From a virus (lineage: Duplodnaviria > Heunggongvirae > Uroviricota > Caudoviricetes), in the IMG/VR virus record IMGVR_UViG_2609460346_000006, positions 1 through 42,345 of that record: a DNA stretch of 42,345 nucleotides. The stretch is one strand, 5' to 3'. A model generated the notes under the pieces. That model did no database searches. It was given only the letters and a program-made list of their open reading frames with translations, and had not been told where the DNA came from. Every line of letters starts with the position of its first letter. The stretch's first letter is position 1. The translations under genes and the position numbers were made by a program. Below are positions 5,767-42,345 of the stretch, in pieces.

Positions 5767-6720
5767 TTATTCGAATGGAAGATCTATTTGCCTTTGAGGA
5801 TTCAACTGTTTTTTTACATGCTCAATTTCGAATATGGTTTTTATGGCATCTCCGATCATATATTGAGTTACTTTTAAATCTACAAGTAACATATCACCTT
5901 TAGAAAAATTTAAGGTGTTGTTATCAATATCGCTGATGAATTTCTGGTCTTTTATTTCAGCCAAAAAGCTACTGGCACCATCAGAAAACCGCCACCGGCT
6001 TCCTTCATTGAAGGAAATATTTTTAATTTGAAGGGCTTTCTCTACTGTGTACTCTGAAATTATTGATTCTGCTGGTAGATTGACTTTGAAATAATGTGCT
6101 TCTTGCTTGTTGATCGTCATGAATGTCAAACCATCATCGACAGTAGAGGCAAAGCTGTCAATGCCTTCCTGCTCTAATGGCTTACTTATAACTTCTTGTA
6201 ATGAAGAGCGAAGTTTAATATTTTTATAAAGTTCAATAACGTTACTGTCGTAGATCTCGCTTTCGTCATCAACAAAGACTTCGATGTTGCTATCAGGCAA
6301 ATTGTGTAATTTTTTTATTTTCCTTGGACCTATCCATTTTATCAGTTGAATTAGGCCTTTGCATATTTTTTCTTTAGAACCAGGACAGAGTCCAATAAAA
6401 GCAATCAAATTCGCAGCGGCTGTTGCTGAATCGCCGGATAAAAAATCAACAGCCTGTTTGAACCAAGATGTAGATGAGGCAACCAGATCTATTCCAAATG
6501 AGCCAGCTTTAAATGATGCATTGACTTTTACAGAAACAACAGTCTTGTTTCCGTAGAGAGTTTTACCGGCTTCCTCTAATGCATCTGATAGTGATAGAAG
6601 GGCAGGAGCAAGGTCTCGCACGTTCATTTCATGCGTTTCCAGTGCCGGACCGTCGTATACTATCCTGAACTTCATATCATTGGTTTCCGAATTGTTGCCC
6701 GCATCCATTATGGCATTCAC
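5767..6720 (-). CDS. Unknown 317-aa protein in the rexAB slot; candidate lysogen-expressed accessory/defence gene
   Basis: Long AT-rich ORF directly downstream of and co-oriented with cI, own terminator, followed by oL/pL; no catalytic motif, TM segment or P-loop seen; start is GTG at 6720 or ATG at 6708 (AGGTGA 8 nt upstream). Confidence 0.7.
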   Translation of the reverse strand: MNAIMDAGNNSETNDMKFRIVYDGPALETHEMNVRDLAPALLSLSDALEEAGKTLYGNKTVVSVKVNASFKAGSFGIDLVASSTSWFKQAVDFLSGDSATAAANLIAFIGLCPGSKEKICKGLIQLIKWIGPRKIKKLHNLPDSNIEVFVDDESEIYDSNVIELYKNIKLRSSLQEVISKPLEQEGIDSFASTVDDGLTFMTINKQEAHYFKVNLPAESIISEYTVEKALQIKNISFNEGSRWRFSDGASSFLAEIKDQKFISDIDNNTLNFSKGDMLLVDLKVTQYMIGDAIKTIFEIEHVKKQLNPQRQIDLPFE

Positions 6721-40379: not shown

Positions 40380-40560
40380 GCTCTGTTACAGGTCACTAAT
40401 ACCATCTAAGTGGTTGATTCATAGTGACTGGATATGTTGTGTTTTGTAGCATTATGTAGTCTATTTTTTAGACTACAGATGCTGTAACACATTGATATTA
40501 ATGGTTTTTAATGTTTCACGTTCAGCTTTTTTATACTAACTTGAGCGAAACGGGAAGGTA
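40380..40560. other. attR (P arm – core – B'): lambda-type core GCTTTTTTATACTAA at 40525-40539; right prophage boundary
   Basis: Left of core closely resembles the lambda attP P arm (CTGTTACAGGTCACTAATACCATCTAAGT…CGTTCAGCTTTTTTATACTAA); right of core is the host B' arm (CTTGAGCGAAACGGGAAGG). Confidence 0.85.
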
Positions 40561-40629: not shown

Positions 40630-41106
40630 TTAACTAAACATCGCAGTAATCGAGGCACTCGCCAGAGAGTGAAAATGAACGTTAAACCCGACCATCGCGC
40701 CGCTGGCACCTTCATCGACATCAATACGTTCTACATCCAGCGCGTGAACGGTAAAAATGTAGCGATGGGTTTCGCCTTTCGGCGGCGCTGCGCCATCGTA
40801 CCCGGTTTTACCAAAGTCGGTACGCGTCTGCAAAACGCCGTCTGGCATAGCTACCAGACCAGAGCCAAACCCTTGCGGTAATACGCGGGTATCAGCGGGT
40901 AAATTAACAACTACCCAGTGCCACCAGCCGGAGCCGGTTGGCGCATCCGGGTCATAGCAGGTGACAACAAAACTTTTCGTTCCCACAGGAACATCATCCC
41001 ACGCCAGATGCGGTGAAATATTATCGCCATCGTAACCCATGCCGTTAAAGACATGACGATGCGGCAGCTTATCGCCATCGCGCAGATCGTTACTGATGAG
41101 TTTCAT
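40630..41106 (-). CDS. ybhB: Host YbhB (PEBP/RKIP-family protein)
   Basis: 158 aa matching E. coli YbhB as recalled; adjacent to attB-lambda as in E. coli. Confidence 0.85.
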   Translation of the reverse strand: MKLISNDLRDGDKLPHRHVFNGMGYDGDNISPHLAWDDVPVGTKSFVVTCYDPDAPTGSGWWHWVVVNLPADTRVLPQGFGSGLVAMPDGVLQTRTDFGKTGYDGAAPPKGETHRYIFTVHALDVERIDVDEGASGAMVGFNVHFHSLASASITAMFS

Positions 41107-42345
41107 TAGAATGCCTCCGGGAAACCTCGGCCTTCAGACCGGGGAGGAAAGGAGGCGGTTTTCCGACTAACTGTACTTTGCATAATCACATTTTCCTCTT
41201 TAGTATGTGAACACATGAAACGCGCATATAAATACCGGTTTTACCCGACAACTGAGCAGGCTGAGCTTTTAGCTCAGACGTTTGGCTGTGTGCGCTTCGT
41301 CTACAATTCCATCCTTCGTTGGCGTACCGATGCGTACTACGAGCGAAAAGAAAAGATCGGTTATCTACAGGCCAACGCTCGCCTTACGGCGCTCAAAAAA
41401 GAGCCTGAATACATATGGCTGAATGATGTTTCCTGCGTTCCCCTCCAGCAGTCGTTGCGCCACCAACAAGCCGCCTTTGCTAACTTCTTTGCCGGACGAG
41501 CTGCATATCCGGCTTTCAAAAGCAAACGGCACAAACAGGTGGCTGAGTTCACTGCCAGCGCGTTTAAACACCGTGACGGCGAGTTGTATATAGCAAAGAG
41601 CAAGTCGCCGCTGGATGTTCGCTGGAGTCGAGAATTACCATCTGCGCCGTCAACCGTTACCATTTCCAGAGATAGCGCTGGCAGGTACTTTGTTTCCTGC
41701 CTGTGTGAGTTTGAACCTGTATCAATGCCTGTTACCGCTAAAACGGTCGGCATTGATGTGGGCTTAAAAGATTTATTCGTCACCGATACCGGATTCAAAA
41801 CCGACAATCCCCGCCACACCGCTAAATATGCGAAGCGATTAACGCTGCTACAGCGACGTTTAAGCAGGAAGCAAAAAGGCTCAAGAAACCGTATTAAAGC
41901 CCGCTTAAAGGTCGCCCGACTCCACGCGAAAATCGCCGATTGCCGGATGGACAATCTGCACAAGTTGTCCCGCAAACTGATTAACGAAAACCAAGTTGTT
42001 TGCGTCGAATCCCTCAAGGTGAAAAACATGATCCGCAACCCGAAGCTGTCTAAAGCAATAGCTGACGCAGGCTGGAGCGAACTTGTTCGCCAGCTCCAGT
42101 ACAAAGGCAAATGGGCCGGGCGGTCAGTGGTCGCCATTGACCAGTATTTACCGTCCTCAAAATGCTGTAGTTGCTGCGGTTTCACCATGCAAAAAATGCC
42201 TCTTAATGTTCGTAAATGGCACTGCCCTGAATGCGGCGCAGACCATGATCGCGACATTAACGCGGCACGTAATATTAAAGCTGCCGGGCTGGCAGTGTTA
42301 GCCCACGGAGAGCCTGTAAACCCTGAATCGCAGCACGCGGCTTAG
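41107..42345 (+). mobile_element. Partial IS200/IS605-family element carrying only tnpB (right end beyond window)
   Basis: tnpB with ~108 bp of structured upstream sequence and no Y1 tnpA seen on the left flank. Confidence 0.5.
41215..42345 (+). CDS. tnpB: IS200/IS605-family TnpB (OrfB)
   Basis: 376 aa; RuvC-like motifs and zinc finger (…CCSCCGF…HCPECGADHDRDINAARNI…); stop codon is the last triplet of the window. Confidence 0.9.
   Translation: MKRAYKYRFYPTTEQAELLAQTFGCVRFVYNSILRWRTDAYYERKEKIGYLQANARLTALKKEPEYIWLNDVSCVPLQQSLRHQQAAFANFFAGRAAYPAFKSKRHKQVAEFTASAFKHRDGELYIAKSKSPLDVRWSRELPSAPSTVTISRDSAGRYFVSCLCEFEPVSMPVTAKTVGIDVGLKDLFVTDTGFKTDNPRHTAKYAKRLTLLQRRLSRKQKGSRNRIKARLKVARLHAKIADCRMDNLHKLSRKLINENQVVCVESLKVKNMIRNPKLSKAIADAGWSELVRQLQYKGKWAGRSVVAIDQYLPSSKCCSCCGFTMQKMPLNVRKWHCPECGADHDRDINAARNIKAAGLAVLAHGEPVNPESQHAA

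Follow-up and report, generated by a model that had tools for sequence, protein, structure and literature searches.

What is a lone tnpB gene doing at the very end of a prophage record, and is it a phage gene at all? The window considered here is the full 42,345-nt stretch of IMG/VR virus record IMGVR_UViG_2609460346_000006. A preliminary description, made from the letters and open reading frames, had placed a solo TnpB beside the prophage junction and called it truncated by the window edge. The placement is right, with the gene lying just outside the prophage: the position of a lambda-type att core, GCTTTTTTATACTAA, gives the order prophage, attR, ybhB, tnpB (Table 1). Both ybhB and tnpB belong to the host chromosome rather than to the phage. 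The window's final base is also where eighteen IMG/VR prophage contigs stop, so the apparent truncation is a prophage-boundary call set at the end of the gene. The open reading frame itself is complete; what the edge does cut is the element around it, whose final 52 bp and guide-forming flank lie beyond the window.

Table 1. Features at the right-hand end of the window, numbered from its first letter; a slash marks the insertion point.
Feature	Position	Strand	Description and support
Lambda-type att core	40525-40539		
ybhB (PEBP/kinase-inhibitor family)	40630-41106	-	NCBIfam equivalog PRK10257, 343 bits; start codon abuts element
TAM-like target motif TCAT	41103-41106	+	Directly 5' of left end; empty sites TTTCAT/GAACCC; common to 24 independent insertions
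Left end (LE)	41107-41214	+	108 bp; filled/empty boundary, ssDNA folds of relatives
LE outer stem	41113-41118 with 41151-41156		GCCTCC/GGAGGC
LE inner hairpin	41125-41130 with 41139-41144		
Promoter-like site	41182-41211	-	TTCACA, 18-nt spacer, TG-GATTAT; inside LE, towards ybhB; consensus scan only
tnpB (E. coli gipA)	41215-42345	+	376 aa, complete; Pfam, NCBIfam, ISDra2 structure alignment, LF82 protein, gipA primers
gipA primer matches	41451-41469 and 41631-41650		Exact
RuvC D181 (GIDVG)	41755-41757		
RuvC E265 (CVESL)	42007-42009		
RuvC D347 (HDRDINAARN)	42253-42255		
Zinc finger CxxC...CxxC	inside 42163-42234		C318/C321 and C337/C340
omegaRNA-like scaffold, in-window part	42280-42345	+	Overlaps tnpB 3' end; covariation, 24-sequence alignment

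The tnpB gene and its identity with gipA

The gene encodes a full-length TnpB with every catalytic motif in place by alignment. Its frame runs from ATG to a TAG stop (42343-42345) that forms the window's final three bases. Profile searches recovered the HTH/WED-REC, RuvC and zinc-ribbon (TNB) architecture of IS200/IS605 TnpB: the Pfam domains HTH_OrfB_IS605 (PF12323, residues 1-45), OrfB_IS605 (PF01385, 172-274) and Cas12f1-like_TNB (PF07282, 287-354) all scored above their cut-offs, and NCBIfam guided_TnpB reached 369.5 bits, its cut-off being 100. Among solved structures, the ISDra2 TnpB entries 8bf8, 8exa and 8h1j come closest (E = 8.8e-75 over residues 3-369), with the D-E-D triad and the zinc finger aligned. 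Judged by that alignment, the catalytic residues are intact. The frame, the profiles and the ISDra2 alignment together confirm the earlier reading of a complete 376-aa TnpB with RuvC-like motifs and a zinc finger, and a search for inactivating RuvC changes, which that reading had named as grounds for abandoning it, found the triad whole. TldR-type identity, that of a nuclease-dead exapted TnpB, was considered and rejected because D181, E265 and D347 are all present and the CxxC...CxxC finger is conserved with them. The NCBI name "InsQ/TnpB family" is a family label only.

The gene also has a history under another name. Primers that Vazeille et al. 2016 used to detect gipA, reprinted in PMC7310525, match it exactly and yield a 200-bp amplicon, as published, and the adherent-invasive strain LF82 carries an identical protein (WP_000817269.1) between ybhB and bioA. 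"GipA" was not among the protein-cluster names for this exact protein, so the identity is set by the primers and the LF82 locus. A tblastn search of phage records found the GipA of Gifsy-1, annotated "Peyer's patch-specific virulence factor GipA" (AF246666), to be 86.4% identical, and the LF82 genome paper lists gipA for LF82, 536, CFT073 and E2348/69 (PMC2941450). Far from being an anonymous tnpB, the gene is, by these sequence matches, that of the AIEC "virulence factor" GipA, an already known gene in a known element class.

Published work on gipA has run along a different line. Its reported phenotypes are Peyer's patch colonisation and macrophage survival; AIEC and Salmonella papers describe induction by bile salts and in macrophages, and in Salmonella D23580 the gene is transcribed in every condition tested. 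The AIEC association was later questioned as not reproduced and possibly phylogenetic (PMC7205867). None of the virulence-factor literature that we found presents GipA as an RNA-guided nuclease, and only Bao and Jurka 2013 (PMC3627910) identify GipA as TnpB-like.

Boundaries and conserved structures of the element

Comparison of filled and empty sites fixes the element to the nucleotide. We took the sequence past the window from E. coli chromosomes that are 99-100% identical to it (L001, CFT073, LF82). In the empty sites of K-12, ATCC 11775 and 2012C-4221, ybhB and bioA are 58 bp apart and the sequence reads TTTCAT/GAACCCTCCTTTC, whereas carriers read TTTCAT/TAGAATGCC...GCCGTCAA/GAGCCCTCCTTTC. 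The insert is therefore 1,291 bp long, from 41107, the very start coordinate of the preliminary description, to 52 bp past the window, where it ends in ...GTCAA. No target-site duplication is present: the empty site TTTCAT/GAACCC becomes TTTCAT, LE, then the right end (RE) with its terminal GTCAA, followed by GAGCCC. Insertion 3' of a short specific target, the lack of a duplication and subterminal hairpins at both LE and RE are those of an IS200/IS605 element, here with tnpB as its only gene. The same boundaries, TCAT before LE and GTCAA closing RE, recur at 24 independent insertions of relatives. P1-like phage-plasmids contain a copy, 81% identical, with these boundaries too, as do two sets of related loci (79 plus 57) on genomes and viral contigs, and beyond them the flanks are unrelated.

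These comparisons also settle what had been proposed about the ends. The structured 108-bp region upstream of tnpB had been suggested as the left end, and the three empty sites put the boundary exactly at 41107, with a two-tier hairpin whose outer stem covaries. Extending the sequence rightward recovered the right end, and inspecting the ybhB-bioA interval in element-free strains gave the exact empty site. An absence of recognisable ends, the other outcome held to speak against a mobile element, was examined, and both ends were identified.

A two-tier hairpin is conserved in the left end. Single-strand folds of 20 relatives give the same arrangement, and the outer stems differ in a compensatory manner between clades (GCCTCC/GGAGGC, CCCCCC/GGGGGG, CCCTC/GAGGG and GCGCG/CGCGC). 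The inner hairpin shows covariation in RNAalifold on a MAFFT alignment; it was the sole structure recovered there, since that alignment fails to keep the outer stem in register. LE and RE carry related hairpins with the common core TTCAGnnCGGGGAG. Folding LE and RE as single sequences gave no significant signal on its own (z about -1.3); the comparative analysis is the informative one.

A second conserved structure spans the 3' end of tnpB. An alignment of 24 relatives over the final 175 nt ahead of the RE boundary gave a consensus omegaRNA-like structure of 35 pairs, 95.8% of them paired against about 40% in controls with slid 3' partners. Compensatory double changes affect 16 pairs, whereas slid controls show 7-8; values as high as those observed came up in 0 of 500 shuffles. 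The alignment points to a conserved structured RNA that overlaps the tnpB 3' end and stops at the RE boundary. Helices supported by covariation extend from about window position 42280 to the end of RE; two further 5' helices (42246-42263) are uninformative because they are invariant. Outside the window the scaffold continues at L001 5947-6014, made up of the 52-nt right end, which closes with GTCAA, and a 16-nt guide-forming flank, GAGCCCTCCTTTCTAG. The preliminary description had put the right end and guide RNA beyond the window, which holds for RE and the flank, but the supported scaffold helices already begin inside it. The Rfam family RAGATH-18 (RF03064) matched below its gathering threshold (29 bits against 44.9, E = 0.006) at L001 5903-5968, straddling the stop codon, and 18 related loci gave zero Rfam matches at the gathering score.

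Characterised TnpB systems suggest that the 16 nt past GTCAA would act as guide and TCAT as TAM. Position 3 of this putative guide is G in all eight carriers examined and A in every empty site examined. The seed is therefore mismatched to its natural target, which counts against efficient present-day homing.

The element lies within the bioA-ybhB interval, an operon, in antisense to both genes. The CAT of its TCAT target corresponds to the start codon of ybhB on the other strand. On the other side, the bioA stop codon follows the tnpB stop by 110 bp, and bioA lies 58 bp past the element's right end. Insertion has moved the original ybhB Shine-Dalgarno (SD) sequence, AGGAGG, beyond that end, so that where K-12 reads AGGAGGGTTCATG the filled site reads GGAGGcattctaATG. 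Read from the sequence, the reverse complement of LE offers ybhB a Shine-Dalgarno, cccGGAGGcattctaATG, at 7 nt from its ATG. A promoter consensus scan of LE found two sites against 1.2 expected, one of them directed towards ybhB. LE may serve ybhB as both promoter and SD.

No transposase accompanies the gene. The preliminary description had noted a TnpB without tnpA on its left; none lies on the right either, the whole interval from ybhB to bioA at this locus being free of a Y1 (HUH) tnpA. The element, having no Y1 TnpA within it, is a non-autonomous tnpB-only member of the IS200/IS605 family. Tblastn with three Y1 TnpA sequences across 144 related loci found an adjacent tnpA at one only, in Endozoicomonadaceae (L080); nearly all of the clade is tnpB-only, and the copy in E. 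coli is non-autonomous. An IS200C tnpA near the P1-like copy was considered as a partner and rejected, since a pro gene lies between them and it belongs to a different element.

Diversity in E. coli and placement of related insertions

The element is a minority resident of E. coli chromosomes. Among 5,426 complete genomes, 342-346 carry it on the chromosome (about 6%), with one copy per genome, and CFT073, Nissle 1917, LF82 and E2348/69 are named carriers. All 11 carrier loci that we fetched place it between ybhB and bioA. The 30 best matches are 98.5-99.7% identical across ybhB and tnpB. Counting chromosomal and plasmid records alike, 333 of 391 matches reach at least 99% identity along all 1,291 bp, and the identical protein occurs on at least 1,000 contigs. 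All eight alleles examined retain the full frame and identical LE and RE sequences. Broken copies do occur, one frameshifted (L005) and one with a premature stop on a metagenome-derived contig (L006).

Sequence diversity drops sharply within the element. The same eight carriers have 11 segregating sites in 580 nt on the left, 4 within the element's 1,291 nt, none of them in LE, and 29 in 1,400 nt on the right. The corresponding values of pairwise pi, 0.0094, 0.0008 and 0.0067, make the element about 10-fold less diverse than its flanks. The deficit extends to synonymous sites, with 2 in tnpB versus 19 in bioA. The element therefore coalesces more recently than the DNA around it. Its spread by recombination or homing into diverged backgrounds fits this deficit, and so does the import of flank DNA from the non-carrier majority instead of homing. 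The deficit may be a new observation.

Relatives of the TCAT type tend to sit at start codons. In 20 of 24 independent TCAT-type insertions the element lies exactly at a start codon: the CAT forms the ATG of an ORF, 133-776 aa in length, that runs away from the element. Where the empty site could be reconstructed, 14 of 16 have a nearby in-frame stop and no alternative start, and at least nine insertions leave an orphaned SD 4-8 nt past RE. Ten of the abutting ORFs were checked against Pfam and all are real proteins, several matching their profile from position 1-3: phage tail proteins L, U and Z, a heptosyltransferase, a tyrosine phosphatase, GST, Tex, a CDF transporter, a GntR regulator and an NAD-binding (6-phosphogluconate dehydrogenase-like) oxidoreductase. 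The head-processing gene of P1 next to the P1-like copy is annotated as such in its record.

Chance placement would give far fewer such hits. Of all ATGA sites in host DNA, 16.8% open a frame of 130 aa or more and 4.1% are first-start ATGs. Of TCAT sites whose insertion point falls outside any CDS in 61 kb of annotated LF82 chromosome, 28% are at annotated start codons, and against that null the probability of at least 20 in 24 is 2.5e-8. In the enterobacterial subclade the reverse complement of LE reads cccGGAGGcattctgATG, a replacement SD; the Zobellella/Pseudomonas subclade has no replacement SD and is still at start codons in four of five insertions. TTATC and TTACC subfamilies cannot follow the rule because their target is not TCAT, and a stop-codon or gene-end rule for those two, considered by eye, was not established. 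The rule could arise from targeting, from selection for harmless sites or from selection for conserved homing targets, among which the present data cannot tell. Our literature search returned nothing relevant on TnpB at ybhB, on a TCAT TAM or on start-codon targeting by TnpB, and the placement may be new.

We raise one further idea tentatively, and doubt it more than we believe it: the TCAT-TAM clade could be specialised for SD/start-codon junctions, in antisense, with the start codon as TAM and the omegaRNA seed covering the SD, and the diversity deficit in E. coli would then be a footprint of RNA-guided homing. Few non-coding positions in a genome are as conserved as start codons and SDs. 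A guide directed there would for that reason retain a target that it can cleave in different strains, in the manner of homing endonucleases and their conserved sites, and the enterobacterial LE, by supplying GGAGG 7 nt from the ATG, would leave the host gene translatable. Were such specialisation real, some GipA "virulence" phenotypes could come via ybhB or via an anti-SD-like guide.

Interpretation and comparison with known systems

The element's anatomy and boundaries, its intact motifs, its conserved RNA and DNA structures and its identity with gipA are evident from the comparisons above. The locus probably holds a non-autonomous tnpB-only (IS1341-type) element in which an intact TnpB/GipA and its omegaRNA would target the element-free ybhB-bioA junction. 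Single-strand "peel-and-paste" transposition would have put the element 3' of TCAT, the complement of the ybhB start codon, and the flank next to it, GAGCCCUCCUUUCUAG, would provide the 16-nt guide when transcribed. If it works like ISDra2 and the Geobacillus elements, the TnpB-omegaRNA complex would cut TCAT plus flank, which is the element-free junction itself. Because the target is that junction, element loss could be undone by recombinational repair, and homing into empty alleles would be possible. We infer nuclease activity, TAM, guide use and homing from such known systems. With no cognate TnpA at the locus, the copy cannot transpose alone and is inherited as a fixed single copy. The same lack of TnpA in cis weighs against this reading, since excision should then be rare and a retention function has little to act on. 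The GipA phenotypes, which a purely selfish nuclease leaves unexplained, count against it as well.

An inert relic, an immobile fossil yet to decay whose protein and RNA are now functionless, seems to us unlikely. It would account for a single copy per genome without TnpA in cis, for the seed mismatch to real empty sites and for the occasional broken copies; moreover, carriers are so closely related within the element that a lack of decay says little. Against it stand the intact frames and identical ends of all eight alleles, the near-identity of most matching records over the full length, the reported transcription of gipA and a diversity so far below that of the flanks that it suggests recent spread rather than long passive residence.

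Less probable again is that GipA is a domesticated host factor, for example an RNA-guided regulator or stress factor that aids gut colonisation and is kept by host-level selection. The reported phenotypes, the induction by bile salts and in macrophages and the transcription in every D23580 condition tested would suit such a role, as would an intact, nearly invariant frame found on so many contigs and a fixed single locus without transposase. Yet the known exapted TnpBs, the TldRs, lost their RuvC residues, whereas D181, E265 and D347 are kept here, and the ends, TAM and omegaRNA are typical of an ordinary mobile clade that inserts at many unrelated places. The AIEC association with gipA was not reproduced and may be phylogenetic, and deletion of a 1.3-kb insert that supplies the ybhB SD could act through ybhB rather than through GipA.

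That TnpB is cargo of the P22-like prophage filling the rest of the window is next to impossible: the window and the 18 prophage calls sharing its end base do include the gene, and relatives reside within Gifsy-1, P1-like phage-plasmids and other phages, but ybhB separates the att core from the element, and the reading is refuted by prophage-free carriers, namely LF82, which has ybhC directly beside ybhB, and A25, which has non-phage genes to the left of ybhB.

The feature itself is ordinary and, as a known gene in a known element class, adds little alone. What changes is the annotation: a gene that has served for years as a virulence marker of AIEC and Salmonella is, by every sequence criterion applied here, an intact RNA-guided nuclease with its guide RNA. 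Because the element sits inside the bioA-ybhB operon and replaces the ybhB ribosome-binding site, phenotypes of gipA deletions call for controls of ybhB expression and of the nuclease and guide. Should the start-codon rule and the diversity deficit hold in larger data, the locus would offer a natural, testable case of TnpB homing at conserved sites.

Several known systems frame this element. ISDra2 TnpB with its omegaRNA, from Deinococcus radiodurans, shares its length class, a full-length alignment, the RuvC D-E-D triad, the zinc finger, a guide RNA scaffold overlapping the gene's 3' end and the right end, and a short TAM 5' of the left end. ISDra2 has its own Y1 TnpA and targets TTGAT, whereas the window element lacks tnpA and follows TCAT. 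TldR proteins have a homologous fold, are RNA-guided and are sometimes phage-borne and linked to host phenotypes; unlike them, with their lack of an active RuvC site, the window TnpB keeps all three catalytic residues. The IS1341-type (tnpB-only) elements likewise place a single tnpB frame between structured left and right ends, lack a transposase and have a sense-overlapping 3' ncRNA, as PMC4615843 describes for such genes. Gifsy-1 GipA, besides its protein identity, has the same LE (cagaatgcctcc...) and abuts the start codon of tail gene U, although its setting is a prophage tail operon rather than the chromosomal interval between bioA and ybhB that houses the E. coli copy. The gipA of AIEC LF82 encodes the identical protein at the same locus, and the published gipA primers match the window gene exactly.

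Placement at host start codons

The TCAT clade, which comprises gipA and those relatives inserted after the same putative TAM, is placed in most cases precisely at the start of a host gene. In 20 of 24 independent insertions, the element sits exactly at the junction between the Shine-Dalgarno sequence and the start codon of a host gene, antisense to that gene, and the CAT of the putative TAM is the gene's ATG read in antisense (the window copy at 41103-41106 and loci L004, L008-L011, L015, L017, L020, L025, L026, L029, L030, L077, L085, L106, L116, L130, L131 and L134). Even with survival limited to non-disruptive sites, the expected start-codon fraction is only ~28% (P = 2.5e-8).

Sister subfamilies have TTATC or TTACC before the left end in place of TCAT (L012-L014, L018, L019, L021-L023, L027, L132, L133 and Endozoicomonas L034-L060). 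Judged by eye, a terminator-like hairpin and T-tract precede several TTATC copies (L132, L019, L027), and the Endozoicomonas genomes carry many copies.

Possible ybhB signals and the prophage border

The left end contains putative signals directed at the adjoining ybhB. Its reverse complement places GGAGG 7 nt ahead of the ATG of ybhB, a candidate replacement, judging from the sequence, for the native Shine-Dalgarno displaced by insertion. A sigma-70-like site (TTCACA, 18-nt spacer, TG-GATTAT) is likewise aimed at ybhB.

The window (1-42345) matches IMG/VR prophage calls L088-L105, whose right border falls where tnpB ends. Given the position of the true attR core, both ybhB and tnpB belong to the host and were counted as prophage in error.

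Coordinates of features in and around the element
Feature	Sequence	Position	Strand
attR core	GCTTTTTTATACTAA	window 40525-40539	
Start-codon site, putative TAM	TCAT	window 41103-41106	
Left-end Shine-Dalgarno-like motif	GGAGG	within window 41107-41128	-
Sigma-70-like site		window 41182-41211	-
Predicted guide		L001 (E. coli carrier chromosome) 5999-6014, just past window end	
Rfam STnc490 match		L004 1165-1288	

Element and guide variation

The element is ~10-fold less diverse than its flanks. Across eight carrier genomes (L001, L002, L087, L147-L151; region equivalent to window 40527 onwards), pi is 0.0008 in the 1,291-bp element versus 0.0094 in ybhB and 0.0067 on the bioA side, and synonymous sites share the deficit. 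The closest flank polymorphisms lie at -25 and +15. At the third position of the predicted guide, 8/8 carriers have G, versus A in all empty ybhB-bioA sites examined (K-12, ATCC 11775, 2012C-4221). Position 15 past the right end varies among carriers.

Two other copies appear damaged. E. coli assembly NZ_AP045789 (L005) has an internal stop in ybhB and a frameshift in tnpB, leaving both pseudogenes, although the assembly itself may be at fault. In a Sutterella MAG, a contig of 1.5 kb (L006) holds an E. coli copy, 99% identical, whose reading frame stops prematurely; this contig is probably a binning contaminant.

Relatives in phages and plasmids

Relatives 81-87% identical occur both in P1-like phage-plasmids, immediately before the head-processing gene pro, and in Gifsy-1-like prophages, where the gene that follows is tail gene U, Z or L (phage-borne loci L004, L128, L129, L137; Gifsy-1, L085). 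The P1-like plasmid NZ_CP027133 (L004) also has an STnc490 match, scoring 146 bits, a short way upstream of an IS200C tnpA. The match belongs to a distinct IS200 element that has no relation to the TnpB copy, from which it lies 1.7 kb apart. Given the copies in P1-like phage-plasmids and Gifsy-1-like prophages, phages are frequent carriers of the TCAT clade.
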